Positions 8,540-44,884 of a DNA stretch of 64,000 nt are shown piece after piece. Under the pieces are notes generated by a model. The model was not told the origin of the DNA. It searched no databases and worked only from the letters and a program-made list of their open reading frames with translations. The DNA comes from Candidatus Omnitrophota bacterium (GTDB lineage Bacteria > Omnitrophota > Gorgyraeia > Zapsychrales > JANLHA01). Made by a program: the position numbers and the translations under genes. Every line of letters begins with the position of its first letter. The stretch's first letter is position 1. Location of the stretch: contig JAKLFA010000002.1 in assembly GCA_022711395.1 (NCBI GenBank), positions 387,864-451,863 of the forward strand. The letters run 5' to 3'.

Positions 8540-8902
8540 TTATCCAATGACTTCACAAATATCCATCACAAAAATGATGCCCTTACCCGGTTCTTTCAAC
8601 CTGCCGTGTTCCTCCAACAATTTGACGAGCTTCTTTCGATTGGCCTCCAGGGTCACTAGCAGTAAAATTTCTCTCAAGGGTCCGATCCGCAATCCCAGAA
8701 CACGTGCCCCCTCCTTTGCGCACAACCCTTTCCCGGATAATACCGTTGCCCCGAAAATGCCGGCTTCTTTAATGACCGGCAAGATCGTCTTTACTTTTCC
8801 CTTAGGAAAGATCGCCACAATCAGTTTGAACATCCCAAAATTTTTTTTCGTCATGACCTTGCCCCCATCTTGAATGATCACGGTACAACGCTTTAAGGAC
8901 AC
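8540..8902 (-). CDS. P-II-like (GlnB-fold) family protein
   Basis: About 104-120 aa. The layout mimics P-II (FKLIVAIFPKGK...GKGIIFVMDICEVIG). The likely start is the internal MTKKNF at about 8854. Confidence 0.6.
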   Translation of the reverse strand: MSLKRCTVIIQDGGKVMTKKNFGMFKLIVAIFPKGKVKTILPVIKEAGIFGATVLSGKGLCAKEGARVLGLRIGPLREILLLVTLEANRKKLVKLLEEHGRLKEPGKGIIFVMDICEVIG

Positions 8903-16955: not shown

Positions 16956-17146
16956 TGTGTTCTCCTCCTTGAGTTGTCTAGGACCTGTTGTCGATATGCC
17001 CCGCAGCTGACAATTGGGAGCGCTCCATGCCTATCATTGTGCCGAAAATATTGCTACGTTTATACTACACTGTTTAATACCCGTCAATAGGACAGACCTG
17101 GACACACTCCCCAAGGCGCCCCTTTTATTAAAACTCCCCCTCGGGC

Positions 17147-17166
17147 CTGCCTGCCGGCAGGCAGGG
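17147..17166. repeat. 20-bp perfect palindrome CCTGCCTGCCGGCAGGCAGG (copy 1)
   Basis: An identical copy at 17684-17703 lies on the other side of tRNA-Asn and the GIY-YIG gene. Confidence 0.8.
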
Positions 17167-17290
17167 ACTCCGGCGCCTCCCTCTGGTTCGGCACCATTTC
17201 CTTGTCTTTGCGCCCTTCGGGCTTCAGGCTGCGGCCAGAACCTCATGCTTCGCATAAGGTTCTTTCACACCGAAAACCTATTCAAATGAA

Positions 17291-17326
17291 AAAGGGCCAG
17301 CATTCGCTGACCCTTTTCATTTGAAT
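17291..17326 (-). terminator. long hairpin terminator downstream of tRNA-Asn
   Basis: attcaaatgaaaaagggccagc-att-cgctgacccttttcatttgaat. About 20-bp stem. Confidence 0.5.
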
Positions 17327-17327
17327 A

Positions 17328-17400
17328 CTCCCCCGCGAGGACTCGAACCTCGGACATAGTGGTTAACAGCCACTCGCTCTACCGACTGAGCTACAGGGGA
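17328..17400 (-). tRNA. tRNA-Asn (anticodon GTT)
   Basis: Minus-strand read TCCCCTGTAGCTCAGTCGGTAGAGCGAGTGGCTGTTAACCACT...GGTTCGAGTCCTCGCGGGGGAG. Standard D and T arms. Anticodon loop CTGTTAA. U1-A72 as in E. coli tRNA-Asn. Confidence 0.85.
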
Positions 17401-17654
17401 TCAGATTTTAAAGAACGGTTACAAAAGAAAATTTTTATTTTTTCACGACCACAGCCCGACTTATAAAACTTTTCCAACTTGCGCGCCTGGATCCGGCCCT
17501 CACATCGCTGTTGAAAGATCAACCGATACGGCCGGTGCCCTTTCGTTGACTTTTGATGACCAGCATTATGGTCCTTCAAACGCCGCGTCGGATCAAGGCT
17601 TATTCCAACATAAATCGTCCCGTCTTTTTCGCTTTTCAGAACATACACATACAC
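17391..17654 (-). CDS. small GIY-YIG nuclease family protein overlapping the tRNA-Asn 5' end
   Basis: 87 aa. YVYVLKSEKDGTIYVGISLDPTRRLKDHN matches the GIY-YIG motif. The stop codon lies inside the first 10 nt of the tRNA. Confidence 0.75.
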   Translation of the reverse strand: MYVYVLKSEKDGTIYVGISLDPTRRLKDHNAGHQKSTKGHRPYRLIFQQRCEGRIQARKLEKFYKSGCGREKIKIFFCNRSLKSDPL

Positions 17655-17670
17655 GCCAATAGAACCTTTT

Positions 17671-17746
17671 CAGCCACTCGCTCCCTGCCTGCCGGCAGGC
17701 AGGTACCGACTGAGCTACAGGGGATCAGATTTTAAAGAACGGTTAC
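17671..17746. repeat. partial duplication of the tRNA-Asn 5' half plus 22 nt of upstream flank, interrupted by palindrome copy 2
   Basis: cagccactcgct + [ccctgcctgccggcaggcagg] + taccgactgagctacaggggatcagattttaaagaacggttac. Matches 17367-17422 exactly apart from the insertion. Confidence 0.75.
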
Positions 17747-17894
17747 TGAGAAATATGAAACAATTATAAGGAAAAGCAAGCCCTTGTCAACTGCAAAAAC
17801 AGTAAACCCGCCCTTTTCAAATGCCATTTATTTCTTGCTTTTTAACAACGTGTGGTATCATAGATGTCAAAATTTTAACCAAAATCAAACACAA

Positions 17895-31470: not shown

Positions 31471-31590
31471 CCCGGTTAAGAAAAAATCATTCAGAAAATT
31501 AAAACGTTTCAAAATAAAAACCCCTTTCACTGAACCTGAAAGGGGTTTTTATTTGTAAAAAAGCCCCTGTAAAAGGGGCTTGAAATTAAA

Positions 31591-31679
31591 CGGAGAGATC
31601 GGGATTTGAACCCGAGAACCCAGTTACCCAGGTTAACTGCTTAGCAGGCAGCTCCGTTCGGCCACTCCGGCATCTCTCC
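31591..31679 (-). tRNA. tRNA-Ser (anticodon GCT)
   Basis: GGAGAGATGCCGGAGTGGCCGAACGGAGCTGCCTGCTAAGCAGT...GGTTCAAATCCCGATCTCTCCG. Long variable arm. Flanked by a symmetric terminator hairpin (aagcccctgtaaaaggggctt). Confidence 0.8.
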
Positions 31680-31789
31680 AAAATTTTATCCGCAAAACCT
31701 GCTCACTTCCAACAACAAGTGCTAATAGAATAAAGCCTGATGTTCTCTTTCGCAAGAATTTTTTTCAATTCCGGCGAGCCGGACGCGGA

Positions 31790-32257
31790 TCACTTTTTGC
31801 CCAGAGCGCGCTTGCCCTGAAAAAATCCGCTCAACAGCCCTGAGCATTCCTCAGCCAGAACCCCGTCCCGCAATTCAAAATGGTGGTTCAAATCGCTATG
31901 CCGGGCAAGGTCCAGAACAGAACCGCAGGCCCCCGCTTTGGGGTCTCTTGCCCCAAAACACACCCTCCCGATCCTGGCGAGGACCAGCGCCCCCGCGCAC
32001 ATGCAGCAGGGCTCCAGCGTCACATACAAACAGCAGTCTTGCAACCATTTGGATTGAACGGCGTTGGTCGCCTGGGTCAGAGCGATCATTTCAGCGTGGG
32101 CGGTGGGGTCCTTGAGCATCTCGACCTGATTATAGGCCCGCGCGATCACCGCGTCCTTACGGACGATCACAGCACCCACCGGGACCTCATCCGAATTCAA
32201 AGCCCGCCTGGCCTGCTTCAAAGCTTCCCGCATAAAGATCTGGTCCATATCATCCAT
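31790..32257 (-). CDS. tadA: tRNA-specific adenosine deaminase TadA
   Basis: HAEMIAL...PCCMCAGAL zinc-binding deaminase motifs. Confidence 0.85.
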   Translation of the reverse strand: MDDMDQIFMREALKQARRALNSDEVPVGAVIVRKDAVIARAYNQVEMLKDPTAHAEMIALTQATNAVQSKWLQDCCLYVTLEPCCMCAGALVLARIGRVCFGARDPKAGACGSVLDLARHSDLNHHFELRDGVLAEECSGLLSGFFQGKRALGKK

Positions 32258-32262
32258 AGCGC

Positions 32263-33828
32263 CTACGCCTTTATTGAACGCCCGCCAGCCAGCGGAAGCA
32301 CGATGCGGATCTGTGTCCCGTGCCGTTGATCACTCTTGACCTGGATCTCCCCCTGCACGCTTTTGACCAGCGCGTAAGCGATCGAAAGCCCCAGGCCCAA
32401 ATTCTTATGCGCGCCCCTGAACTTCGTCGTGAAAAAAGGTTCGAAAATGTGCGGCAGGTCCTCTTCCGCGATGCCGATCCCCTGGTCCCTCACGCAGATC
32501 TCACACATGGTTTTATCTTCAACAAGCCCGCAACTGATGCCCAGCAGCCCTCCGGCGTCCATCGCCTGGACCGCGTTGTCCAGGATATTGCCGATGACCT
32601 GGGAAAGATCGATCATGCTGATCCTCACCTTGCAGGGGGTCCTGCTAAACGATGTCTTGACACGGATCCCGCCGTGCTTAAAAACAGCCGCTTTCGATGA
32701 AAGCACCGCCTCGATGGCAGCCTTAACGTCCGTGGAGGCCTTATCCATCTGGGCTTTCTTCTGGCTCAGGCGTAAAAGACGGTCCGCGGTTTGATAGCAG
32801 TATTCGATCTGATTCTTCATGCGTTCGATATTGGAAAAGATCAAGACAAAATCATGATAACTGATGTATTCAAAATCCCGGTTCTTGTATTTCTTCAAAA
32901 GCCCCTCGGCGATCCTGGATATGCCCAGCAACGGATTCTTGAGTTCATGCGCGGCACCTTCAATAAAAAGCTTGAGCGCTTCCATCTTGTCCGATTCATG
33001 CTGCAGGCGGTCCTTCTCGATCCGCGGGCGCAGGTCCCTCACGATGCTGTGGGCCCCCACGACCTGCCGCCCCTGATAAAGCGGCGAAATGTTCATCTCC
33101 ACCGGGATCGCCAGCCCGCTTTGGGTCATAAGGTCAACAGTCTGGTTGAAAAAGCTCTTGCCGGATTTCACGCCCTGAAAGATCTTGCGCGCGCGGCCAA
33201 GATGCTTGGAGGACAAAAAATGCTCATAAAGGCGTGGCTCCTGGGCACGGCTGGAGATCTCTAAAAGACGGGCCATGGCAGGATTAACATAGGTGATCTC
33301 CCCTTTAAGATTTAGGGTGATGATCCCGTCCGCGGCCCCTTCGCTCAGCAGACGGTAGAGGTTCTTGGATTCTTTCAAGCCGTCCTGCAGGGAGATTTGG
33401 CGCGTGACATCGCGGCCTAGCGACAGGATATATCCCCGCCCTTCCAGCGTTGTATAAACCGCGGTCGCATCGATGATCTGGACCTGGCCATGGCGCCCTT
33501 TGCGTTCAAGTTGATAGCTGACGGTCTTTTTGGCGCGTTTCAGCTCCGCGAGGTGGGCCTTCTTCCACTGGGGCAAGGTCATCTTTTTATTAAAAAAACG
33601 GGTGATCGGAGTCCCGATCAAGTCCTTCAAAGCGATGCCCAGGCCGTTGACGGAAGCGTCATTGGCATAGACGATCCTGCCGTCCTCGTCAATGATAAGC
33701 AGTTCATCGCCGATATAACGCAAGATATTTTTTAAAAGGCCCGCTTCACAGTTCAGCAGATCGAGAAAAGACCTTTTTGATAGGTTCTTTGAAGGCATGC
33801 GATTTTTACGTGCGGCAGATGAGGGCAT
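32263..33828 (-). CDS. PAS-domain sensor histidine kinase (cytoplasmic, 2x PAS + HisKA + HATPase)
   Basis: 521 aa. EGAAHELKNPL H-box. RDQGIGI...GLGLSIA G-boxes. Confidence 0.85.
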   Translation of the reverse strand: MPSSAARKNRMPSKNLSKRSFLDLLNCEAGLLKNILRYIGDELLIIDEDGRIVYANDASVNGLGIALKDLIGTPITRFFNKKMTLPQWKKAHLAELKRAKKTVSYQLERKGRHGQVQIIDATAVYTTLEGRGYILSLGRDVTRQISLQDGLKESKNLYRLLSEGAADGIITLNLKGEITYVNPAMARLLEISSRAQEPRLYEHFLSSKHLGRARKIFQGVKSGKSFFNQTVDLMTQSGLAIPVEMNISPLYQGRQVVGAHSIVRDLRPRIEKDRLQHESDKMEALKLFIEGAAHELKNPLLGISRIAEGLLKKYKNRDFEYISYHDFVLIFSNIERMKNQIEYCYQTADRLLRLSQKKAQMDKASTDVKAAIEAVLSSKAAVFKHGGIRVKTSFSRTPCKVRISMIDLSQVIGNILDNAVQAMDAGGLLGISCGLVEDKTMCEICVRDQGIGIAEEDLPHIFEPFFTTKFRGAHKNLGLGLSIAYALVKSVQGEIQVKSDQRHGTQIRIVLPLAGGRSIKA

Positions 33829-33842
33829 AGGTAGTATAAAAA

Positions 33843-33916
33843 CGCGCCTGAGGGGACTCGAACCTCTAACCTTCTGTTCCGTAGACAGATGCTCTATCCA
33901 ATTGAGCTACAGGCGC
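33843..33916 (-). tRNA. tRNA-Arg (anticodon ACG)
   Basis: GCGCCTGTAGCTCAATTGGATAGAGCATCTGTCTACGGAACAGAAGGTTAGAGGTTCGAGTCCCCTCAGGCGCG. Confidence 0.85.
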
Positions 33917-34002
33917 AGATGTGTGCTGTTCTATAAAAATGTATAACGGTTTTACTACAAAACGTCGTGTTCGTCAACTGATTTTTGGCAAGGAGTCCGG
34001 CG

Positions 34003-35412
34003 TCAATGGACGAAGCGCTGGCGCCGTTCATCCAGATATTCTTTCCCAAGCAGTTCCTCACGGCTGAGGCCAAGGCCCGCGACCGCCTTGTCCGGATCAC
34101 GGCTAAAGGCCCGGCAAAACAGCGTTACTTCCCGAAGGGTCGTCAAATTGCGGTTGGCAAGCTCTTTGAGGAGCATCGCCCGCAACTGGACCTCCAGGAT
34201 AAGGTCTTTGGGAAGGAGCCCCGATTGCTGGGAGAGCTTATCACGGTAAACCGTGCTGGTAGACATCTGACGGATCTCGTTGGATTCATAATCATATTTA
34301 TAGATCTGCGAAAGGAGCACCTTCTCCTGCTCCATGCCGCTGGTCTCGCTGATCTCATCCACGATACGGGTCACCCTGCCTCCGACGTGATAACGCTTTA
34401 GGACCACAAAGACATCGATCAGCCGCACAAGCTCCTTTGGGATATTCATGGGCTGGTTCTGAAGGCGCATGATCGCCTCCCGGGACGTGAGCGCGTGGAT
34501 CGTGCCGATGCAATATTTCCCGATGTTGGCCGCCGTGATCATGTCCCCCGCCTCAGCGCCCCGGACCTCACCGATCACGATCCGTTCAGGCCGCATGCGC
34601 AAGCTGTTCTTGACCAGGTCCGCCAGTGAAAAATCCTCCCCGCTCTCCAGTCGGGAGCAGCTGGAAACAAATTCCGTGTTCAATTCCAGAGTGTCTTCGA
34701 TCACCACCAGACGGTCAGTGTCGGGAATAAAACTGAAAAGCGCGTTCAAAAGGGTCGTCTTTCCAACACCCGGCCCCCCGGCAATGATCATGTTCGCCGG
34801 GCGGATCGACATTCCTTCCAGATACAGCCAAAGCTGGGCCGCGACCTCATAGGTCATCCCGCCCCGCTTGATCAGGTCCAGGACACTCAAAGGCGACGCC
34901 TTGGCCTTGGTGATCGTGATCTGGGGGCCGAACGGCGATTTGATAATATTGACACGGCCGTCAAGATTGGGAAGCTCGATATTCATGATATTTTCGAACC
35001 GCGTGCGTCCTGAAAACAAGATCAGCTTCTTGATAAAAAGGTCCAGCTCTTCTTTGGATTTGAATTGGCGGTCAACGCAGACCAGGCCTTTTTCCGAATG
35101 ATGGATATAGATCGGGTTGAGCGCGTTAATGATCACGTCTTCCACGTTGATGTCGCTTAAAAGCTCCTGCAAAAGCCCATAAGAAAGGAAATTCTGAATG
35201 AACAGGTTGCGGGTATGCTCATTGTCCAGCTCTTCCATCTCCTTCTTGAACCGGGTCTTGTTGCCTTCAAGAAAGAATTCCTTTAAACCCTCCTGGACGA
35301 TTTCGATCTTCTCGTCATGCCGTTGCAGGAGATGGAAACGGCCATAGAGCTTCTCGACCAAAGCGGTCTGCAGATCAATGGATTGTTTTGTTTCTGAAGG
35401 TAAAGAGTTCAT
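34003..35412 (-). CDS. type II/IV secretion-system family ATPase (CpaF/TadA/FlaI-like), orphan
   Basis: 469 aa. Walker A GGPGVGKTT. Asp box and Walker B (VIEDTLEL). His box (RIVIGEVRGAE). No other secretion or pilus genes are nearby. Confidence 0.75.
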   Translation of the reverse strand: MNSLPSETKQSIDLQTALVEKLYGRFHLLQRHDEKIEIVQEGLKEFFLEGNKTRFKKEMEELDNEHTRNLFIQNFLSYGLLQELLSDINVEDVIINALNPIYIHHSEKGLVCVDRQFKSKEELDLFIKKLILFSGRTRFENIMNIELPNLDGRVNIIKSPFGPQITITKAKASPLSVLDLIKRGGMTYEVAAQLWLYLEGMSIRPANMIIAGGPGVGKTTLLNALFSFIPDTDRLVVIEDTLELNTEFVSSCSRLESGEDFSLADLVKNSLRMRPERIVIGEVRGAEAGDMITAANIGKYCIGTIHALTSREAIMRLQNQPMNIPKELVRLIDVFVVLKRYHVGGRVTRIVDEISETSGMEQEKVLLSQIYKYDYESNEIRQMSTSTVYRDKLSQQSGLLPKDLILEVQLRAMLLKELANRNLTTLREVTLFCRAFSRDPDKAVAGLGLSREELLGKEYLDERRQRFVH

Positions 35413-35471
35413 AATGTTAAATTACTGTATCACTAAAGATAGCAGCTGTAAATATTTATGACAAATCTCTT

Positions 35472-38129
35472 TCAGGGTTGCGGCTGCGACTTCGGCAATC
35501 CGATCAGCGTCAACAGCCGTTGATCCCCCAGATAGGTTTGGGCAAGGCTCTGAACATCCTCCGCGGTGACCGAATTGATCCTCTCTTCATAACGTTTATA
35601 CGAATCCCAGCCCAGGCCATAGAGCTCGTCTAACGCTGTCATAAATGAAAACCCGGAATCCGTCTCTTTCGTCCGCCGGAAACTTCCGATCAAATAGGCC
35701 TTTGTGCTTTGAAGAAGGTCCGCATCGACCGGCTGTTCTCGCAATTCCCTGATCAGCCCGTGCAAAGCGGCCTTGACTTCCTGCGCGCGGTCAGGAGAGG
35801 TCAAAACATGGAACAAAACATAACCCGTATCCCGTAACGGCTGAAATCCCCCTCCCAAACGATACGAAGCGCCCATCTGTTCCCGGATCACATTAAAGAT
35901 CCTGCCCCGAAAAGGCGATCCCAGGATCGCCGCCAGGATTTCCATCGCATAACGGTCCTCGTGATAAAAACCGACCGCCTGCGCACCGACCAGAACGACG
36001 GCCTGTTCTTTCTCAAAATATTCGCTTATCTCTCTTGCCTCGACCGGGGCAGGCGAGGATGAACGGATATCGACCTCCTGCCTGGCCATAGACCCGAAAA
36101 GAGACGTTACGTGTTTTAAAACAGCTTCACGGTCGAAATTTCCAAATACCGCCAGGACAGCGCTATTCGGTTTCACGTAAGACCGGTAATAGGCCAGCAC
36201 ATCCTCCCTGGAAAGGGCTTCCACGCTCTCATGGGTCCCCAGCTCGGTCAAGCGGGCGGGATGCCCCGCGAAAAGCTTTTCTAAAAACAGCCGCCGTGCC
36301 GCCCGCGGCAGGTCATCGTCACGCGCCGAGATCGATGTGTGGATACGCTGCCGGCTTTTACGGACCTCCTCGTCCGGGAACACTGGGCCCAAAACAACCT
36401 CTGCCAGAAGTTCCAGTCCCAGACGGATATCTTTATCCATCATGGACATGGAGAGACCAATACTGTTGCGCCCGGCAAATGCGCTTAGGGAGATCGCCTC
36501 CTTTTCCAAAAGCGCGTGAAGCCTCTCGGCCGAAAAACGCCGGGTCCCCTGCGTCCAGACATCGGCGAACAGGTTGGAGATCCCGTTGTTGCGCTCATCT
36601 TCCTGTCCGACTCCAGCGTTAAAAACAAACACCGCCTGCACGAACGGCAGCGTGGGATTCTGCCGCAACAGCACGGTCATCCCGTTGTCCAAACGCACGG
36701 CATCGACCGCGTCCTTATCAAAATTCAACGAATCGGGCCCCGGCCCGGAGGGCTCCTGCGTCTGCGGGGTCAACGCCGTTACCGTTAAACTCTCATCCAC
36801 CAGGTAGCGCCGGGCCGCCTGCTGGATCTCTTTTACGGTCAGGCGGTCAAAAGCCTTCACATACCTCAACGAAAAGGAGCTGTCACCGAACAACCCCTCG
36901 CTCACCGCCAAGTCATGCGCCAATGAGGAGGATGTTTCCTGGCGCTGCCAATAATCTTTCCAGACCGCTTTCTTGGCCTTCAAAAGCTCCTCTTTGCTGA
37001 TCCCTGAACGCTGGATCGCACGGACCTGTTTCAGGACCTCTTCCCGGACCCGATCAAGGGGCACATCCATGAACGACACTTCGATCTCAAAGACCCCGTC
37101 GCCCACCGGTGTAAAATTGGAAGCGGAAACGGACTGGACCAGTGACTGCCGCTGCACAAGTTCCCGATAAAGCCGGGAACTGGCCCCCTGTCCGAGGACC
37201 ATCGCCAACGCGTCCAACGCTGCCATATCATCATGAAAAACATTCACCCCTCGGTAGGCAAGGCTCATGCGGGTCAAAGGCGTGGGATATCCCTCGGAAT
37301 AAAAACGGGACCCCTTCTGGACCGGCTCCTGGGGAAAGTCTCTCAAAGAGACCGGCGTGCGTTCAAATTTCTCGAATGCCGCTCTGGCCAGGGGGACCAC
37401 CTCGTCTTTTTTGACCCCGCCGGCCACCACCAGCACGATATTGTTGGGAGCGTAAAATTTCTTGTAATGCTGTCTCATCTGCTGCGCGGTCAATGAACGC
37501 AGAAGCGGTTCATAGCCGATGATCGGGACCTTGTAGGGATGGACACGATAGACATTCGAAAAGGTCATCTCGCTCAAATACCGGTCAGGCGAATCTTTAT
37601 ACATCTTCAGTTCGCTCAGAACGACCTCCTTCTCCCGGTCGAACTCCCCCTCATCGATGACAGCGTTCATCAGCATGTCCGCAAGGATATCCAGCCCCTT
37701 TGAAAAACTGACGGCGGGGACCGTGATCGTGTAGATGGTGTAATCAAGCCCCGTTGAAGCGTTGATCACCCCGCCCAGCGACTGGATCTCATCGGGGATA
37801 TCCCCGGGCTTTCGCGTCAACGTCCCTTTAAAGATCATGTGCTCAAGGAAATGGGACAATCCCGTGCCTAAAAATGGTCCCTCCATGGTCGAACCAACAT
37901 CCACAAAACCATAGACCGAGACCATGTCGCTGGCCGGCATCTCGGCCACAATAAGCCTCATTCCATTTTCAAAAAGGATCTTTTCTGGTCGAACGGGTTC
38001 GATCGAAACCGCATCGCCCGTGGCAAAAAACAGAAGGCAGACGGCGACCGCCCCTGCCAAGAAAAAACGCAAACTTATGGAAAGGTTATTTTTTCTTCCG
38101 GAAATCATTGAGTAATTTCTGGATATCAT
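35472..38129 (-). CDS. secreted tandem M16 (pitrilysin/insulinase) family zinc peptidase
   Basis: 885 aa. Signal peptide. HFLEHM inverted zinc motif in the first half. Second inactive-type M16 half. Confidence 0.8.
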   Translation of the reverse strand: MISRNYSMISGRKNNLSISLRFFLAGAVAVCLLFFATGDAVSIEPVRPEKILFENGMRLIVAEMPASDMVSVYGFVDVGSTMEGPFLGTGLSHFLEHMIFKGTLTRKPGDIPDEIQSLGGVINASTGLDYTIYTITVPAVSFSKGLDILADMLMNAVIDEGEFDREKEVVLSELKMYKDSPDRYLSEMTFSNVYRVHPYKVPIIGYEPLLRSLTAQQMRQHYKKFYAPNNIVLVVAGGVKKDEVVPLARAAFEKFERTPVSLRDFPQEPVQKGSRFYSEGYPTPLTRMSLAYRGVNVFHDDMAALDALAMVLGQGASSRLYRELVQRQSLVQSVSASNFTPVGDGVFEIEVSFMDVPLDRVREEVLKQVRAIQRSGISKEELLKAKKAVWKDYWQRQETSSSLAHDLAVSEGLFGDSSFSLRYVKAFDRLTVKEIQQAARRYLVDESLTVTALTPQTQEPSGPGPDSLNFDKDAVDAVRLDNGMTVLLRQNPTLPFVQAVFVFNAGVGQEDERNNGISNLFADVWTQGTRRFSAERLHALLEKEAISLSAFAGRNSIGLSMSMMDKDIRLGLELLAEVVLGPVFPDEEVRKSRQRIHTSISARDDDLPRAARRLFLEKLFAGHPARLTELGTHESVEALSREDVLAYYRSYVKPNSAVLAVFGNFDREAVLKHVTSLFGSMARQEVDIRSSSPAPVEAREISEYFEKEQAVVLVGAQAVGFYHEDRYAMEILAAILGSPFRGRIFNVIREQMGASYRLGGGFQPLRDTGYVLFHVLTSPDRAQEVKAALHGLIRELREQPVDADLLQSTKAYLIGSFRRTKETDSGFSFMTALDELYGLGWDSYKRYEERINSVTAEDVQSLAQTYLGDQRLLTLIGLPKSQPQP

Positions 38130-38700
38130 GATCCGCGTTCTTAAGCACTTGGGAACAATTATACAAAAGAATGGAGAATTGCCAGCTCTCCTCCAGTCCG
38201 ATGATCAGGCCCGTGCGGACATTCTCCTCTTTCTGGAGCTTGTCCTTATAAAAGCTGATCGCCTTGGAAAGCCGGCCCTCAAACACATCCAGTGACTGCG
38301 TTTTATTATTGTAGCGATAGGACGGGATCGATATCCCGCGCACAAGGAAAAAATTCACGATCGAATCTTCATCCCCCTCCATCTCCTCCTCAAATTCGAA
38401 TCCCTTAAACTGAGGGACATTCGGCGGCAGGACCAGAGACGGTTTCTGGATGACGACCTCCCCCTGGCGCACGACCGTGTCACCGGGATTGATGGTGGAT
38501 TCCGCCAGAAAAATATACGGCATGATCGTGTCCGAATCCGTCAAAAGGCCGCGGATGCGCGAACGAACGATCTCAGTATTCTTCAGCGCCTTGACCCAGG
38601 CGTCATACATATTCATATCCGTCTCCCAACATTTCACAGTGCCCTTACAGGAAAACTCCTTTTTTAGTCGGAGTCCGGCGTTTTTCCTGACGAAAATCAA
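38086..38700 (-). CDS. hypothetical protein
   Basis: 204 aa, Lys-rich C-terminus, no recognisable family. Overlaps the M16 gene 3' end by 44 nt. The start may be MNMYD at about 38617. Confidence 0.35.
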   Translation of the reverse strand: MIFVRKNAGLRLKKEFSCKGTVKCWETDMNMYDAWVKALKNTEIVRSRIRGLLTDSDTIMPYIFLAESTINPGDTVVRQGEVVIQKPSLVLPPNVPQFKGFEFEEEMEGDEDSIVNFFLVRGISIPSYRYNNKTQSLDVFEGRLSKAISFYKDKLQKEENVRTGLIIGLEESWQFSILLYNCSQVLKNADHDIQKLLNDFRKKK

Positions 38701-38798
38701 CCGCCATTGCGCTTCGTTGAGCTATGCTCAACTTGCGGGTCCTCACTCTACCAAATTATTTTATTTGATCGGGCTGTCTTCAGCCCGATCAAATAAAA

Positions 38799-38883
38799 CG
38801 GAGAGGCAGGGATTCGAACCCTGGGAGGTTTGACCCTCGCGCGCTCTCCAAGCGCGTGCTTTCGGCCACTCAGCCACCTCTCC
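38799..38883 (-). tRNA. tRNA-Ser (anticodon GGA)
   Basis: GGAGAGGTGGCTGAGTGGCCGAAAGCACGCGCTTGGAGAGCGCG...GGTTCGAATCCCTGCCTCTCCG. A bidirectional terminator hairpin at 38767-38790 follows. Confidence 0.85.
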
Positions 38884-38973
38884 ATAATCAATCGAATTCA
38901 GCGAATTTTCAAAGAAAAGCAAACAATGGAGGTATGAATATACCACACTTCGTCCGTTTTGCAACCAAATCCG

Positions 38974-39270
38974 TTAAGACAATTTATAGGACAGAAGAAA
39001 CATAAAAGAAGCGATCGCAATAAACAGTCCGGACCAAAATGAATACTTTAATACGATCTTATCGATGGCAAATGATACCTTGTTTTCCAATTTCGGCCAG
39101 ATCCGTTTCCGCAGCCCGGCCTCCTTCTTGAAATCCTCGTTCAAACGCTCCACCGCCTGGCGTGACACCATCAACATGATCCCGATAAAGAACGCCAGAT
39201 ACAGCATCATCTCAACCAAGAACGTCACTGCCAGATCAAGGCTTGATCCCAGTCCGAAATTTTCCAACAT
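38974..39270 (-). CDS. small membrane protein, hypothetical
   Basis: 98 aa. Two predicted transmembrane helices. Confidence 0.3.
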   Translation of the reverse strand: MLENFGLGSSLDLAVTFLVEMMLYLAFFIGIMLMVSRQAVERLNEDFKKEAGLRKRIWPKLENKVSFAIDKIVLKYSFWSGLFIAIASFMFLLSYKLS

Positions 39271-39287
39271 TCCTTCCTCCTTAAGTA

Positions 39288-40622
39288 TTAACCTTCAATG
39301 GATTTCAACGGAACGTTATACGATGAGCGCCCCAACTGCTCTTCAAAGGCCCTCAATGAATCCTTGATCTTTTTCAAAGCTTCGGATTCCTCGACCGGAA
39401 TATCCTCGATCCCCTGATGGTTCAGGATCGAGATCACGTTCTGGACGGTCAATGACTCAATATCACGAGCAGGCTGATAAGACACTTCACCCGCGTTGTT
39501 ATTGAAGGCCACCTCCACAAGAACCCCCGCCTGGGTCAACTGGAACAAAAGTTCTCTGACCAAACGGATGGGGACCTCAAGTTGATGCGAGATCTGGCTG
39601 GCGGTATACGGCGCTTTTGCTTTGACAAAATTCGAAACACATAAATGCGTGATCCGCAACGCCATAAGGCGCTTAAAATAATGGCTGGCCTTCAGGCAAT
39701 CCTGCTCAAACTCATAGGTCTCCACGTTCTGCTCGGCGAAGGCCACCTCCGCCCCGAACAAGACAACAAGCCAGCTGATCTGAAGCCACATCAAGAACAA
39801 CGGCAACGCGGCAAAGCTCCCGTAGATCGCGCCGTATTTCGCGACCATGATCTGGGCCGAAAAATACAAAAATTGAATGACCTGATAAAGCGTTCCCGCA
39901 ATGATCCCTCCCAGGAACGCGGACTTGAACTGGACTTTCGTGTTCGGCATAAAAATATAAATAAAGGTGAACAATAACCACAGGAACAAAAACGGTAAAA
40001 ACTTCAGGGAAAAATTGACCAGCGGCGCCAGCACTCCCAAAATAGCGATCTTTTCCATGATCAGATTGACTTGGCTGGTGATCAGAACGGTCATGCTGCT
40101 GGACATGATCAGCAGAATCGGACAGATCAGCATGATCGAAAGATAATCACTGAACTTGCGCCCGAACGAACGCGGCTTTTTGATCCCCCATATCTCGTTA
40201 AACGCCTTTTCGATATTGCCCAACACCTTGATCACGGTCCAAAACAGAAGCGCCACGCCGATACCGGCGATCAAACCGCCTTTTGTGTTCTCCAGGAATG
40301 TCCGTGAAAACGTCACGATCCTCCCCACCACTTCTTCCTGGCCTGCCATTTTTTCATACAGGATCTTTTCCAGGACATTCTCAAAACCAAACCCCTTGGC
40401 GATCCCGAATGCCATGGCCACGATCGGAACGATCGACATGAGCGTGTAATACGTCAAGGCCGATGCCTGCAGCGCGCATTTGTCCTCATCAAAGCCCCGC
40501 TTGGACAGGACAAAGATCCTCAACTGCCTCAAAAGCAGGGATTTTCTCTTCGGAAGATGACGGGAATTGATCCGCCAAATACCCTCATCAAGAAAATTCA
40601 GGATTTTAGAAAGAATACCCAC
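39288..40622 (-). CDS. YihY/BrkB (virulence factor BrkB / RNase BN-like) family membrane protein with extra C-terminal domain
   Basis: 444 aa. ALTYYTLMSIVPIVAMAFGIA is typical of YihY. About 130-aa soluble C-terminal extension. Confidence 0.75.
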   Translation of the reverse strand: MGILSKILNFLDEGIWRINSRHLPKRKSLLLRQLRIFVLSKRGFDEDKCALQASALTYYTLMSIVPIVAMAFGIAKGFGFENVLEKILYEKMAGQEEVVGRIVTFSRTFLENTKGGLIAGIGVALLFWTVIKVLGNIEKAFNEIWGIKKPRSFGRKFSDYLSIMLICPILLIMSSSMTVLITSQVNLIMEKIAILGVLAPLVNFSLKFLPFLFLWLLFTFIYIFMPNTKVQFKSAFLGGIIAGTLYQVIQFLYFSAQIMVAKYGAIYGSFAALPLFLMWLQISWLVVLFGAEVAFAEQNVETYEFEQDCLKASHYFKRLMALRITHLCVSNFVKAKAPYTASQISHQLEVPIRLVRELLFQLTQAGVLVEVAFNNNAGEVSYQPARDIESLTVQNVISILNHQGIEDIPVEESEALKKIKDSLRAFEEQLGRSSYNVPLKSIEG

Positions 40623-40654
40623 AAGGCCACCTCTTTCATATAAGCCGTTCGAAA

Positions 40655-40936
40655 TTAAAGATTATTGAGCATCCGGTCAAAATCGTCCATAGAGACCGCC
40701 GGGCATGTGGAAAACGAGATCCCGGTCAACAAGGTGAGCCCCAAAGACGCCTTCATAGCGATCTTATTGTCCGGAAAATCCGCGATAAGGACGCAATCAT
40801 AACCGCCCAGCAAGGCATACATGCTGATGAGCTTTCCGCCCAATTGGTTGATCAAGGACAACGCGCGATCGGTCCGTTCAGAACTGATCTCCTTGATCGA
40901 CTCCGTATTGTATTTCCCGATAAAAACATAGGTCAT
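40655..40936 (-). CDS. GYD-domain protein
   Basis: MTYVFIGKYN...GYDCVLIADFPDN. The start was set to the internal Met. Confidence 0.65.
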   Translation of the reverse strand: MTYVFIGKYNTESIKEISSERTDRALSLINQLGGKLISMYALLGGYDCVLIADFPDNKIAMKASLGLTLLTGISFSTCPAVSMDDFDRMLNNL

Positions 40937-41034
40937 GGCGCGCTCCTTTTTTGAATTTGAACACATCCCCATCATACGACGAAACCAAATCCCACGCAAT
41001 AAGAAAGCGGAAATTTAACCCGTATTTTCACGAC

Positions 41035-42108
41035 TTAAACACTGAAACGGAAATACAGCACATCTCCATCCAGGATCTCGTATTCCTTACCCTCCAGCCG
41101 GACCAGGCCCTGTTCCTTCAAAATGGAATACTCCCCAAGGCGAACCAGGTCATCATATTTGTAGACTTCGGCCCGGATAAACCCTCGTTCCATATCCGTG
41201 TGGATCTTTCCCGCGGCCTTGACCGCCGGAGTGCCTTGCGGGATCAGCCAGGCTCGTGTTTCCTGCGGCCCTGCCGTAAAAAAACAGGCCAGCTTCAAAA
41301 GCTCACACCCCGCGCGGGCGAGCTTGCCCAGCCCCGGAGTCGCGATACCGGCGGCGTCATAATAGCTTTTCCGTTCCTCTTCAGGCAATTCCAGGATCTC
41401 GGATTCAAGCTTTGTGCAAAGTTCGATGACCGCGGCGCCCTCACGGGCCGCAAGTTCTTTTAAAGGACCGATCATATCCGGGCTGGCGCCGTTCTCATCA
41501 CAATTCGCCACATATAACACCGGTTTCGCGGTCAAGAACTGATACTCGCTTAAGATCTCTCCCGGAATATCCTGCAAGCGCGCGGATTTCCCCTGGTCAA
41601 AATTCGCGATGATCTGCTCCAGCGCCGCAACGCGTTCCCTGGCTTCCTTCTCACCACTTTTAGCGAACTTATGGGCCCGCTCAAGGGCTTTCTGCGCCTG
41701 CTGCAAGTCTGCCAGCAAAAGTTCCGTTTCAATAATTTCAGCGGCTTGAACAGGATTAAGGTCTCCGGCGACATTAACAACATCTTCATCATGAAAGCAC
41801 CGCACCACGTGGCACAGCGCATCCACTGCGCGGATATTGGCCAAAAATTTATTGCCCAGCCCTTCCCCCTGGCTGGCGCCCTTGACAAGGCCGGCGATGT
41901 CCACAAAACGGATACCGGACGGCGTGATCTTGGCGCTCTTCCATTTTTCAGCCAAGACTGAAAGCCGCTCATCCGGCAAGGGAACAATGCCGACGTTGGG
42001 TTCGATCGTTGTGAACGGGAAATTTTCCGCCGCGATCCCCGCGCCGGTCAGCGCGTTGAACAGGGTGGATTTTCCGACATTGGGTAAACCGACGATTCCA
42101 ATTTCCAT
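41035..42108 (-). CDS. ychF: redox-regulated ATPase YchF (Obg-family)
   Basis: MEIGIVGLPNVGKSTLFNALT P-loop. TGS C-terminal domain. Confidence 0.9.
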   Translation of the reverse strand: MEIGIVGLPNVGKSTLFNALTGAGIAAENFPFTTIEPNVGIVPLPDERLSVLAEKWKSAKITPSGIRFVDIAGLVKGASQGEGLGNKFLANIRAVDALCHVVRCFHDEDVVNVAGDLNPVQAAEIIETELLLADLQQAQKALERAHKFAKSGEKEARERVAALEQIIANFDQGKSARLQDIPGEILSEYQFLTAKPVLYVANCDENGASPDMIGPLKELAAREGAAVIELCTKLESEILELPEEERKSYYDAAGIATPGLGKLARAGCELLKLACFFTAGPQETRAWLIPQGTPAVKAAGKIHTDMERGFIRAEVYKYDDLVRLGEYSILKEQGLVRLEGKEYEILDGDVLYFRFSV

Positions 42109-42134
42109 TTTGATCCTTAATGTGAACTTTCAAA

Positions 42135-42226
<92 letters not shown>

Positions 42227-42312
42227 GCGAACATTCTATATTTTTTTCCTCACCGGACGGATGGGCGAACCGCATGCTGGAATGTGCCGATCTCCTCCCT
42301 GATCAATCCTGA

Positions 42313-42343
42313 AAGATCGGCCAACCACTCAGACACCTCTCCG
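42313..42343. repeat. duplicate of tRNA-Ser(CGA) 5' acceptor/D-arm plus 14-nt upstream flank
   Basis: ccactcagacacctctccgcgaacattctat is repeated from 42208-42238. A 75-bp spacer separates the copies. Confidence 0.7.
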
Positions 42344-42434
42344 CGAACATTCTATTCCGTAGAAATTAATAAATAGTATAAATACCAAAATAAGATATCA
42401 CATTATATGTGGGGGATTATAGGGCGTCAAGCGA

Positions 42435-42938
42435 TTATGAAGGGCTGTTCCAGGTCCGGATCGCTCCGCTGTCAAAAACAGGTTTCCATTTCGAGACCTC
42501 ATCATGAGTATCAGCCGCAGCGTCCACTGAATCGATGTTCGCCCTCAGGATCCCGTCTTCGGTAACCCCGAATTCAACCTTGGGCGAAAGCGGATGGATC
42601 GGTGAGGCAGAGATCACCCGGTAATCATCTCCCAGGACCTGAAAATCATAATAATACCCATCAAACACGCGGCGTTTGATGTTCTCTGAACGGAAGAAAT
42701 ACCCTTCCTCCTGGGAATACAAAACGAACTCCGGCAGCTGCGAGAGCGTCGTGACGCGGACACCCGAGATCTTTTCATAGGAATAGATGTAACGGTTCAA
42801 AGCATCGACCCCGAACCTCACGCGCTTGATCTTATCGTATCGGGAAATGGCGAATAACAACGCCAGGCAGGCGAACATCACCGCTCCATAAAAAGCGTAG
42901 CGGATATATGGCGAAATGATCATTCCGGATGATTTCAT
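42435..42938 (-). CDS. membrane-anchored hypothetical protein
   Basis: 167 aa. N-terminal transmembrane helix, no family recognised. Confidence 0.35.
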   Translation of the reverse strand: MKSSGMIISPYIRYAFYGAVMFACLALLFAISRYDKIKRVRFGVDALNRYIYSYEKISGVRVTTLSQLPEFVLYSQEEGYFFRSENIKRRVFDGYYYDFQVLGDDYRVISASPIHPLSPKVEFGVTEDGILRANIDSVDAAADTHDEVSKWKPVFDSGAIRTWNSPS

Positions 42939-42953
42939 GTTTCCTCACAACTG

Positions 42954-44390: not shown

Positions 44391-44477
44391 GCTGTAATTT
44401 CCAATCCATCGTTCTGGTATCAGTATATCACAGCTTGAAACGTGTCAAAACGGAGTTTGACTTTTTTAACACGGCCC

Positions 44478-44681
44478 TCACCAGCGGCTTTGAGGAGTGG
44501 AGCGGACCAAAAGGCCGAACGCCCCGAAAAACAGCATGAAAAGGAACAGGATCGTCAAGAACCCTGATATCTGCTCATTAGGGATCAACGGACGTCCGAA
44601 CATCTGGGCCGTCAGCAGAATAGCCAAAAGAACCAGGATCAGAATATAAGTCCATTTCAGCGTCGCAAGGAAGATTTTCAT
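44478..44681 (-). CDS. small membrane protein, hypothetical
   Basis: 67 aa. Two transmembrane helices. Confidence 0.3.
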   Translation of the reverse strand: MKIFLATLKWTYILILVLLAILLTAQMFGRPLIPNEQISGFLTILFLFMLFFGAFGLLVRSTPQSRW

Positions 44682-44711
44682 AATGGATCCTTTTAAAAAT
44701 GATCATAAAAA

Positions 44712-44796
44712 ACGGAGAGGCCGAGATTCGAACTCGGGAGGCCTTTCGGCCTGCTTGTTTTCAAGACAAGTGCTTTCAACCGCTCAGCCACCTCTC
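44712..44796 (-). tRNA. tRNA-Ser (anticodon TGA)
   Basis: GGAGAGGTGGCTGAGCGGTTGAAAGCACTTGTCTTGAAAACAAG...AGTTCGAATCTCGGCCTCTCCG. Confidence 0.85.
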
Positions 44797-44884
44797 CCAC
44801 ACGCCATCACCCCCGACACCGGCGGGGAAAAATCAGAGACATGATTATAACAAAATAAATTGGATTTTCAACAGTGAAAAAATT

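Follow-up and report, generated by a model that had tools for sequence, protein, structure and literature searches.

Why does the gene for a very small nuclease end inside a tRNA gene, and why do fragments of the same tRNA, each interrupted by an identical palindrome, lie on both sides of it? This question is raised by a tRNA-Asn locus in a genome contig of a Candidatus Omnitrophota bacterium, of which a stretch of 64,000 nucleotides (henceforth referred to as the window) was analysed. We consider that the locus is probably a selfish mini-cassette of 0.3 kb that resides in tRNA-Asn and parasitizes its promoter, with a perfect 20-bp palindrome (henceforth referred to as PAL) as its cognate palindrome. 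The anatomy of the locus, the family-wide recurrence of its design, the clade specificity, the purifying selection, the distribution of PAL and its seamless insertion are directly established. In the order in which the unit is read, the parts are:

17763 to 17790, minus strand: sigma-70 promoter of the tRNA-Asn unit, TTGACA and TATAAT separated by 16 nt (12/12 consensus matches)
17704 to 17746, minus strand: part A of the dead copy, a 22-nt leader and tRNA-Asn nt 1-21, 43/43 identical to 17380-17422
17684 to 17703, strand-neutral: PAL copy 1, CCTGCCTGCCGGCAGGCAGG, a perfect palindrome 29 nt 5' of the start codon
17671 to 17683, minus strand: part B of the dead copy, tRNA-Asn nt 22-34, 13/13 identical to 17367-17379
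17423 to 17670, minus strand: unique cassette DNA between the repeat copies, 248 bp, with a short 5' UTR and the conserved part of the ORF
17391 to 17654, minus strand: predicted stand-alone GIY-YIG nuclease gene of the Slx1/UPF0213 branch, 87 aa, GTG start
17401 to 17422, minus strand: live (second) copy of the 22-nt leader, from the repeat comparison
17328 to 17400, minus strand: intact tRNA-Asn(GTT) (ARAGORN; Rfam tRNA, 68.8 bits)
17279 to 17327, minus strand: terminator-like hairpin followed by a T-run, 17-nt arms 94% complementary
17171 to 17278, minus strand: spacer with small GC hairpins and GAA loops (e.g. 17237-17263, GCGAAGC core)
17146 to 17165, strand-neutral: PAL copy 2, from a palindrome search of the window
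17130 to 17170, minus strand: dead 3' fragment of tRNA-Asn, 18/21 identical to the live 3' end

All elements named in the first-pass annotation are present, and the only correction needed is a shift of one base in the second palindrome, which had been placed at 17147-17166. The tRNA 5' end and the ORF overlap, as had been noticed, and do so by 10 nt; the TAG stop codon is nt 8-10 of the tRNA (U8-A9-G10). The 5'-half duplication is likewise exact: 56 contiguous bases (17367-17422, i.e. the 22-nt leader and tRNA nt 1-34) recur with 100% identity as 17671-17683 plus 17704-17746, and the dead copy terminates just past the first anticodon base. PAL copy 1 splits this copy seamlessly between nt 21 and 22, where the D loop meets the 3' D stem; as single-stranded DNA it stacks onto the D-stem pairs (-17.5 kcal/mol, z -4.4). 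The coding sequence for the last 10 residues of the nuclease, as well as its stop codon, comes from the repeated leader together with nt 1-10 of the tRNA, and the unique 248 bp have neither a promoter nor a stop codon of their own. The consensus promoter, upstream of the dead 5' copy, is the sole promoter-like site available to the nuclease gene. On the 3' side, the hairpin and T-run fit a terminator, as proposed, and in the spacer that follows there is neither an ORF nor a tblastn hit to the nuclease; this DNA may be left over from an earlier 3'-side insertion. The dead 3' fragment comprises the end of the T loop, the T stem, the 3' acceptor strand and the trailer, and has PAL copy 2 inserted in it; without PAL it reads GAGTCCCCGAGGGGGAGTTTT, and the live tRNA-Asn 3' end reads GAGTCCTCGCGGGGGAGTATT (score 15.0, compared to 8.6 ± 1.3 and a maximum of 13.5 for shuffles). 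The consensus promoter had been overlooked previously, as had the location of the second palindrome in a dead tRNA fragment. The statement that PAL occurs only twice was borne out, since no third copy exists in the 64 kb with up to 3 mismatches allowed, and 0/100 shuffles matched. The arrangement is identical across three independent assemblies, which excludes an assembly artefact. Rfam detected only the tRNA over the locus, and a search of the window for Intron_gpI was negative even with a threshold of E <= 1; the neighbouring genes encode a PEP-CTERM protein and an ABC ATPase. Elsewhere in the window, a second 5'-half duplication, ORF-less and also overlooked before, is present at tRNA-Ser(CGA), 42286-42355; the notion that its insert is a deletion derivative of the Asn cassette was rejected.

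The 87-residue protein is, as judged from its sequence and its modelled structure, a predicted GIY-YIG nuclease of the stand-alone Slx1/UPF0213 (YhbQ-like) branch. Its Pfam hit is GIY-YIG PF01541 (E 1.1e-13; 51.7 bits, cut-off 22.6), and a PDB profile search returned the UPF0213 proteins 1ywl and 1zg2 at ~1e-13, followed by Slx1. The AlphaFold model (pLDDT 89.6) has the expected fold of a three-stranded sheet and helices, nearest to Slx1/UPF0213, and Foldseek ranked 1zg2 and Slx1 7cq2 best (probability 1.0), followed by the I-TevI catalytic domain. The catalytic set (Tyr of GIY, Tyr of YIG, Arg, His and Glu) is complete; among 40 homologues, Y4, R25, H29 and E61 never vary, and conservation of Y15 is at least 90%. 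With 87 residues the protein consists of the catalytic domain only, and neither Pfam nor the AlphaFold model contains a separate DNA-binding domain. NCBIfam and PADLOC gave no match, and a word-indexed protein search returned only two 90%-identity clusters. Compared to the gene at a related locus (L003), dN/dS is 0.08 at dS ~1, i.e. the gene is under purifying selection and thus functional.

The only close relative (85% protein identity) has the same occupied arrangement. No empty tRNA-Asn site was found, as orthologues of the ABC ATPase (58-68% identity) are non-syntenic and lack a tRNA in their vicinity. Between the window and L003 the promoter is 100% kept, the 148 nt 5' of the ORF are nearly identical despite a dS of ~1, and the unique 248 bp are the sole diverging stretch. 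The near-identity of the 148 nt points to function or gene conversion, and not to a decaying scar.

The nuclease belongs to a family with 3978 cluster representatives at E <= 1e-3, and its metagenome homologues were sampled without bias using a hand-made degenerate DNA pattern (motif scan). A tRNA gene, of one of many isotypes, abuts 56% of 121 sampled homologues. In this motif-based metagenome sample, a same-strand tRNA lies downstream of 27/112 ORFs (24%) compared to 24/616 control ORFs (3.9%), and a same-strand tRNA lies upstream of 42/114 homologue ORFs (37%). Family cassettes are usually flanked by a direct repeat of part of the nearest tRNA: a 5' tRNA copy is found upstream of the ORF in at least 15 of the 27 tRNA-downstream loci, and a 3' tRNA copy downstream of it in at least 17 of the 42 tRNA-upstream loci. 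The side on which the tRNA lies (5' or 3') is clade-specific and is shared with the nearest neighbour in 56/67 cases; the isotype is shared in 21/67, with 4.5 expected by permutation, and proteins that are 69-72% identical occur at different tRNAs (Ala vs Val, Met vs Leu). Tandem and internally deleted cassette copies exist. At one locus (L088) a dead copy carrying PAL and its tRNA enclose no more than the first 7 codons of such an ORF, and at another (L282) a group I intron (Rfam, 86 bits) splits the tRNA-Asn downstream of a similar cassette. The distribution of the homologues is patchy and extends over multiple tRNAs, which contradicts the housekeeping alternative. Literature searches, made also with the palindrome string, brought up no account of PAL or of tRNA-linked Slx1-like cassettes, and the family is large and apparently undescribed so far. 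Overall, the idea of the first-pass annotation that a tiny mobile GIY-YIG element targets tRNA genes and regenerates their 5' half receives strong support at the level of the family, and at that level only, from the tRNA adjacency above controls, the direct repeats, the ~70%-identical proteins at different isotypes and the dN/dS of 0.08.

PAL has a pan-bacterial distribution of its own, which the first-pass annotation had not recognized. It occurs letter-perfect in at least 120 species of at least 9 bacterial phyla and in 35 viral-contig stretches; 73% of its copies are intergenic (16% expected), and 14/127 copies, compared to 11/595 controls, lie in tRNA-like fragments. Insertion is seamless, at varying tRNA positions and with local tRNA sequence on either side. 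A direct repeat of at least 5 nt adjoins only 4% of the sites, and a regular target duplication was therefore rejected. A preference for hairpin loops is a weak trend (p 0.095). Degenerate copies are few, with a recurring variant in which GGC is changed to GGT, and there are contigs with multiple copies. An adapter or assembly artefact was rejected on the grounds that PAL is present in isolates, turns up across many independent projects and has a clade-specific biology. The PAL-associated nucleases are mutual nearest relatives, that is, they form one clade, and the dead tRNA fragments beside this clade are enriched for PAL. A second PAL within 1.5 kb is found at 6/14 clade loci compared to 4/116 other PAL loci (p 8e-5). 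A search for any other protein family recurring near PAL found none besides GIY-YIG, and for more than 90% of PAL copies a GIY-YIG gene is absent within 8 kb. PAL is thus a separate 20-bp unit and not the terminus of an element. It is most likely the DNA site of the predicted nuclease, moved or copied with the help of that nuclease, a causal link that we infer.

A rather doubtful alternative is that PAL is not moved by the nuclease at all, but is a palindromic repeat in its own right, which host factors or unknown ones spread. It would be kept here either as a stable 5' UTR hairpin that tunes a toxic nuclease under a strong tRNA promoter, or because compact genomes have few neutral sites and dead tRNA pieces belong to these. 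Consistent with this, other clades have sequence-unrelated hairpins 11-29 nt 5' of the start codon, a perfect stem of at least 6 bp is present in 82% of the ORFs that have a tRNA downstream compared to 27% of random windows, most PAL copies are distant from any GIY-YIG gene, and the GGC to GGT variant preserves a G-U pair, which is permitted in an RNA hairpin. However, the letter-perfect conservation across phyla with few degenerate copies is unlike that of a structurally selected RNA hairpin, the association is specific to one clade around whose genes the copies cluster, and the RNA folding of the 5' UTR in the window is unexceptional (z -0.65).

The preferred reading, a promoter-parasitic cassette with a cognate palindrome, can be set out as a series of events, in which we infer the cleavage specificity and the mode of movement of the cassette. 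The cassette would have entered tRNA-Asn in the anticodon loop, after G34, and entry would have been accompanied by the 56-bp duplication of the leader and tRNA nt 1-34, so that a complete tRNA-Asn persists downstream. The tRNA's own consensus promoter would then drive a unit of promoter, dead 5' half, nuclease mRNA and tRNA, in which translation of the nuclease would stop at U8-A9-G10 of the tRNA. The nuclease may break tRNA genes, which can fold into cloverleaf or hairpin DNA, and the cassette may be installed either by repair from an occupied copy or by illegitimate joining, with selection retaining solely those events that regenerate the tRNA. To our knowledge, GIY-YIG enzymes are hydrolytic and unable to join DNA themselves. 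PAL may have the secondary effect of breaking up the dead target copy and of placing a stable hairpin 11-32 nt 5' of the start codon. Several points speak against this reading. The live tRNA is identical to the dead copy, and therefore a purely tRNA-sequence-specific nuclease should still cut the live tRNA. The protein lacks a DNA-binding domain, and its branch has been viewed as inherited vertically (PMC1564403). No empty site came to light, most PAL copies are remote from GIY-YIG genes, PAL lacks a target duplication and shows a weak hairpin-loop preference at best, hydrolytic enzymes could not do the joining, and the near-identity of the 148 nt is unlike a decaying scar. With regard to cleavage resistance of the occupied allele, we note that the dead copy is disrupted by PAL and the live tRNA is intact.

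A wider and more tentative proposal, possible but not one that we would favour at present, is that PAL is the smallest known mobile DNA and constitutes, with the domain-only GIY-YIG clade, a two-part selfish system. Aided by these nucleases of 80-90 residues, the perfect 20-bp palindrome may be excised or copied and may enter new sites seamlessly, and a promoter-parasitic cassette that invades tRNA genes, together with a non-autonomous palindrome, may have crossed at least 9 phyla and some phages. In a sharper variant, the cassette tRNA and a host copy disabled by PAL may form a natural 'cleave and rescue' addiction module.

Related to this variant is the unlikely alternative that the locus is a replacement ('cleave and rescue') element of ~500 bp (17171-17670), which brings a tRNA-Asn of its own and a terminator along with the nuclease gene, and that the tRNA-Asn of the host was destroyed, its remains being the dead 5' and dead 3' parts, each marked by PAL. 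The host would depend on the tRNA of the element, and the element would therefore be hard to lose. In the window, PAL-holding dead 5' and dead 3' fragments indeed flank the ORF, the tRNA and the terminator. At a tRNA-Leu locus (L212), a module of D-arm, PAL variant and CGCGCACGC lies on both sides of the ORF and the live tRNA, and its downstream copy runs into a full tRNA 3' part with a middle unlike that of the live tRNA. Elsewhere, dead copy and live tRNA disagree at ~8 positions (L005), or the dead copies are of the Lys(TTT) type and the live tRNAs are Lys(CTT) (L168). However, the 22-nt leader, which is not tRNA sequence, is identical in both window copies, and local duplication fits this better. 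The dead 3' fragment, at 18/21 identical, is also short, its acceptor strand mismatches the dead 5' copy, and a downstream dead copy is absent at most PAL-clade loci.

That nothing at the locus is mobile is very unlikely. The small nuclease gene would then be a resident one that serves the cell in DNA repair or tRNA metabolism and is co-transcribed with the tRNA by chance, and the repeats would stem from local replication slippage. The strong purifying selection on the gene and the lack of an empty site agree with this explanation, as does the published view that the stand-alone Slx1-like branch, in which there is one case of fusion to a tRNA methyltransferase, is ancient and has been inherited vertically (PMC1564403). 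Against it, precise partial tRNA duplications recur at many isotypes, 5' as well as 3', and closely related proteins are found beside different tRNAs. There are also tandem and internally deleted copies, and the protein falls into only two 90%-identity clusters with no NCBIfam or PADLOC match.

The first-pass annotation had regarded the two palindromes as paired boundaries, that is, as the termini of a composite element of ~560 bp, and this reading is now improbable and largely refuted. Identical palindromes do bracket the ORF, the tRNA and the terminator, 22 nt are complementary between the two sites, and the second PAL within 1.5 kb at 6/14 clade loci could be read in the same way. However, PAL is self-complementary and therefore any two copies resemble inverted repeats. 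It is free-standing, being solitary at more than 100 unrelated sites; 8/14 related cassettes have a single copy; and in the window it lies inside the duplicated target and not at its edge, with no duplication outside the pair. The weakest explanation, leftover attachment sites of an integrase-borne genomic island at tRNA-Asn, has in its favour that tRNA genes are classic integration sites and that a dead 3' fragment lies downstream, but it is scarcely credible given that no integrase is nearby (the PEP-CTERM protein and ABC ATPase genes adjoin), that the repeats enclose just 248 bp and one GIY-YIG ORF but no tyrosine or serine recombinase gene, that no relative was seen with an integrase-bearing island at this place, that integrases typically restore the 3' part of the tRNA, and that the family-wide pattern is bound to the GIY-YIG gene.

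Several known systems resemble parts of the proposed cassette. The free-standing GIY-YIG homing-endonuclease genes of fungal mitochondria likewise are small nuclease ORFs inside an essential gene, enter host sequence and are accompanied by a partial duplication that leaves one copy intact and a pseudogene fragment; Allomyces atp6 is reportedly an example of a GIY-YIG gene at the end of a host gene with such a duplication. Those enzymes are of the I-TevI/UvrC lineage with DNA-binding domains, whereas the window protein is of the domain-only Slx1/UPF0213 type of ~80-90 aa, and the window cassette is bacterial, targets a tRNA gene, parasitizes a tRNA promoter and has a conserved palindrome alongside. 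With respect to PAL, the REP/RAYT system also consists of a short palindromic unit dispersed mainly between genes and one specifically associated nuclease family, at whose gene the copies cluster. RAYTs belong to the HUH tyrosine transposases, and REP sequences are imperfect and specific to a species; PAL, in contrast, is a perfect 20-mer that is identical across phyla, and its partner is a hydrolytic GIY-YIG protein and not an HUH enzyme. The GC clusters of yeast mitochondria and the Rickettsia palindromic elements are, like PAL, GC-rich palindromes in AT-richer DNA, RNA genes included. They are lineage-restricted, longer or variable, and often have target duplications, whereas PAL is 20 bp, invariant and pan-phylum.

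Phage T4 SegB is a GIY-YIG endonuclease within a tRNA gene cluster (PMC2330249) and is reported to drive segmental amplification of tRNA loci (PMC13096335). Like the cassette, it is a free-standing GIY-YIG gene embedded among tRNA genes, and its cleavage in the tRNA gene region promotes local duplications. Unlike the cassette, it is a multi-domain, site-specific phage enzyme with neither a flanking partial-tRNA direct repeat nor a palindrome. Group I introns with homing endonucleases in the anticodon loops of bacterial tRNAs (PMC3984707) share the target region of the cassette, but the cassette has no ribozyme and would keep the tRNA intact by duplication and not by splicing. Nearest in sequence and fold are Slx1 and bacterial UPF0213/YhbQ (PDB 7cq2, 1ywl, 1zg2; PMC1564403). 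Slx1 is structure-specific on branched and stem-loop DNA, which fits the link to a hairpin and to tRNA genes that can form a cloverleaf. Slx1/UPF0213 proteins are regarded as housekeeping repair proteins, and in the literature searched no mobility, tRNA linkage or cognate palindrome is reported for them.

PAL is a sequence of 20 bp that is letter-conserved across phyla and spreads without a known enzyme, and together with the dead tRNA pieces it corrupts annotation: of the 151 closest proteins in the database, 21 have PAL-encoded peptides in mis-called extensions, and tRNAs that carry PAL are called by tRNA finders. Should its site prove to be a defined one, whether a 20-bp palindrome or a structure, so tiny a nuclease would be a potential tool. 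Also conditional on the proposed reading, the cassette would represent a minimal design of mobile DNA, with one gene of 80-90 residues and no promoter, stop codon or DNA-binding domain of its own, and the stand-alone Slx1-like GIY-YIG proteins of bacteria, so far treated as small repair enzymes of unknown role, would largely be selfish cassettes on tRNA genes.

The window lies on a 516-kb JGI metagenome contig, and the ABC ATPase next to its tRNA-Asn locus has its best named matches in Candidatus Omnitrophica. The tRNA-Asn locus, an arrangement also found in two other assemblies, comprises the following features:

17146-17165: second copy of a perfect 20-bp palindrome (PAL), the sole further copy in 64 kb with up to 3 mismatches allowed
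17328-17400, minus strand: tRNA-Asn(GTT), called by ARAGORN and Rfam
17391-17654, minus strand: GIY-YIG ORF of 87 codons with a GTG start (Pfam GIY-YIG, 51.7 bits)
17684-17703: first copy of PAL, CCTGCCTGCCGGCAGGCAGG, splitting the second copy of the tRNA 5' half
17763-17790: consensus promoter (12/12 matches), upstream of this dead 5' copy

The first-pass annotation had described a tRNA-Asn overlapped by a GIY-YIG gene, a duplicated tRNA 5' half with 22 nt of flank and a palindrome splitting the duplicate, all of which we recovered: the TAG stop of the ORF is nt 8-10 of the tRNA, and the 56 bases at 17367-17422 (22-nt leader plus tRNA nt 1-34) recur without mismatch at 17671-17683 and 17704-17746. 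The other palindrome copy, placed one base off in that annotation, is indeed the only one in the 64 kb, where none is expected by chance. The encoded nuclease consists of the catalytic domain only and, in an alignment of homologues, keeps the catalytic Tyr, Arg, His and Glu. A profile built from 40 homologues matches the UPF0213 proteins EF2693 and BH0048 and next Slx1, and the same proteins are the top structural matches of its AlphaFold model (pLDDT 89.6). Compared with L003, the only close relative, the protein is 85% identical and 47/264 nt differ, with dS of about 1.0 and dN/dS of 0.08, from which it follows that the gene is functional and both lineages old. Upstream of the ORF, 148 nt (promoter, leader, dead half and PAL) differ between the two loci by one base, as do the live leader and tRNA; part of this near-identity, but not all of it, can be explained by constraint on the promoter and by gene conversion involving the live tRNA.

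The family to which this nuclease belongs numbers 3978 cluster representatives in an exhaustive search, mostly of 75-130 aa, and a metagenome scan using a degenerate DNA pattern of the conserved motif yielded 125 ORFs. A same-strand tRNA lies at -40 to +106 nt after the ORF in 27/112 family ORFs, compared to 24/616 control ORFs from the same loci, and at least 15 of these 27 have a copy of the tRNA 5' part 30-110 nt upstream. The mirror layout is commoner still: an intact tRNA ends within 150 nt upstream of the ORF in 42/114, and at least 17 of the 42 carry a copy of the tRNA 3' part (from about nt 44) directly after the ORF. Overall, 68 of the 121 aligned members abut a tRNA, over many different isotypes. 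The side of the tRNA is a property of the clade, being common to a member and its nearest neighbour in 56/67 cases. Isotype is shared above chance (21/67 against 4.5 expected), despite which proteins 69-72% identical adjoin Ala and Val or Met and Leu tRNAs. Many ORFs read into the tRNA and end at or close to U8-A9-G10, and ten loci have a gap of -10 to -18 nt from stop to tRNA start. Together, the adjacency, the partial copies, the isotype switches and the run-in are features of an inserted, moving cassette and not of a resident operon gene.

At four loci (L225, L193, L220 and L231) family ORFs stand in tandem, two or three of them within 1 kb, which points to local amplification. The motif-recovered loci are tRNA-dense (one tRNA per 4.6 kb), and the window itself contains, within 13 kb (31590-44797), four more tRNA-Ser genes and a tRNA-Arg gene, all five on the minus strand. 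One of its tRNAs, tRNA-Ser(CGA) at 42137-42226, adjoins a second 5'-half duplication at 42286-42355 (minus strand), in which a 13-nt leader and nt 1-21 (34/34 identical) are followed by a hairpin, GCCGATCT...AGATCGGC, a 46-nt spacer, the leader repeated and the intact tRNA; this duplication contains no ORF, and its spacer shows no relation to the Asn cassette. L282 (IMG/VR 3300035537_000177) has the same cassette layout, again at a tRNA-Asn gene (about 830-1800) and with PAL inserted at 21|22. A group I intron (Rfam Intron_gpI, 86 bits), which carries an ORF with an HNH-like motif, interrupts the downstream tRNA-Asn after nt 35, so that two different selfish elements have settled on one anticodon loop.

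Of the 151 closest homologues, 21 have mis-called extensions at the N or C terminus that contain peptides from the three reading frames of PAL (PACRQA, LPAGRQ and CLPAGR), which led us to check for PAL at the DNA level. Among the entries concerned are P0005, P0007, P0018, P0021, P0049, P0065 and P0088, and tRNA-derived peptides (e.g. VELADT, SSVGRASD) stand beside PAL peptides in the same extensions. Two loci with proteins 50-58% identical and differing GC content and tRNAs (L004 and L005) have the same 20-mer, in each case within a dead tRNA copy that precedes the ORF. With one genome scanned per species, PAL was found in at least 120 stretches, compared to about 0.5 expected by chance, in Patescibacteria, Bacteroidota (cultured isolates included), Omnitrophota, Planctomycetota, Gamma- and 'Delta'-proteobacteria, Bdellovibrionales, Thermodesulfovibrio and Chloroflexi; viral contigs added 35 further stretches. 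The flanks are mutually unrelated, 73% of copies are intergenic (16% expected), degenerate copies are fewer than perfect ones, and no regular target duplication was found at PAL sites.

Removing PAL in silico restores unbroken tRNA sequence across the join, and 14/127 sites are tRNA-like compared to 11/595 controls. The position within the tRNA varies (21|22, 23|24, 14|15, 12|13, 16|17, 31|32, the variable loop and about 61|62), with local tRNA sequence on either side, which argues that PAL is inserted anew each time and not carried as the end of a cassette. The earlier proposal of a tiny GIY-YIG element that targets a tRNA gene and regenerates its 5' half is right in essence, but its palindromes do not mark the boundaries of the element. 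In two high-GC IMG/VR contigs (L275 at 2239-2330 and L252 at about 8570-8660) PAL lies in the variable loop of a phage-type tRNA-Met; ARAGORN still calls a 92-nt tRNA, which may mean that the tRNA tolerates PAL as a long extra arm. One 29.5-kb IMG/VR contig (L271/L278/L279) has at least six PAL copies within two larger repeat families, and 10 kb of L273 contain about eight PAL-like variants; the density is REP-like, and no GIY-YIG gene is in view.

The 12 members with PAL upstream, which include all five from a PAL-blind scan, are mutual nearest relatives among the 121 and adjoin Asn, Leu, Arg, Lys, Gly and Ser tRNAs. A further PAL lies within 1.5 kb in 6/14 loci of this clade compared to 4/116 other PAL loci (p 8e-5), and no other protein family was found to recur around PAL. 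In other clades, different small GC hairpins take its place as seamless insertions 11-29 nt ahead of the start codon. Upstream of the L239 ORF the hairpin is instead a replacement: the 17-nt anticodon arm of a dead tRNA-Gly copy has given way to a 17-nt perfect hairpin, TCCCGCC-TCC-GGCGGGA, which keeps the anticodon TCC in its loop, the tRNA sequence picking up again at nt 44-52. The grouping of PAL-bearing members in one clade, the clustering of PAL, the lack of a rival family and the hairpins of other clades fit a reading in which PAL and the nuclease of its clade would be a cognate pair in the manner of REP and RAYT. More than 90% of PAL copies lie far from any such nuclease gene, and a hydrolytic nuclease has no means of joining DNA by itself. 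In the clade with the tRNA upstream of the ORF (L154, L157, L159, L165, L166, L179, L186, L209, L219, L222, L230 and L235), a composite palindrome of roughly 100-130 nt with the recurring motifs CCTTCGC ... GCTACGG(C/A)TGGCAAGCC ... GCGAAGG lies between tRNA and ORF, possibly another cognate repeat.

We also considered whether the element brings its own tRNA. Without PAL, 17130-17170 reads GAGTCCCCGAGGGGGAGTTTT, which is 18/21 identical to the 3' end and trailer of the live tRNA-Asn (alignment score 15.0, shuffles 8.6 ± 1.3), so that both PALs of the window lie within dead tRNA-Asn fragments flanking ORF, tRNA and terminator; L212 and L155 likewise have PAL-bearing modules on either side of the ORF. 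Although both observations leave room for such a replacement, the identical 22-nt leader points to local duplication, and we regard replacement as unlikely. The stretch from the terminator to the dead 3' fragment has small GAA-loop hairpins (17237-17263 and 17171-17236), one with the core GCGAAGC, a known, very stable DNA mini-hairpin; in L170 and L180, insertions of similar GAA-loop hairpins interrupt the dead copies.

A 2006 survey of the superfamily took the stand-alone Slx1-like proteins of bacteria to be inherited vertically, with no mention of a linkage to tRNAs (PMC1564403). We found no description of PAL or of a tRNA-linked cassette in the searchable literature, itself of incomplete coverage. 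The closest precedent for the cassette comes from fungal mitochondria, where one free-standing GIY-YIG gene reportedly accompanies a partial atp6 duplication. Such genes also occur there with a partial atp9 duplication (PMC7487136). Overall, the locus is most likely a promoter-parasitic selfish cassette with a cognate 20-bp palindrome. We infer that the cassette would move by break and repair.
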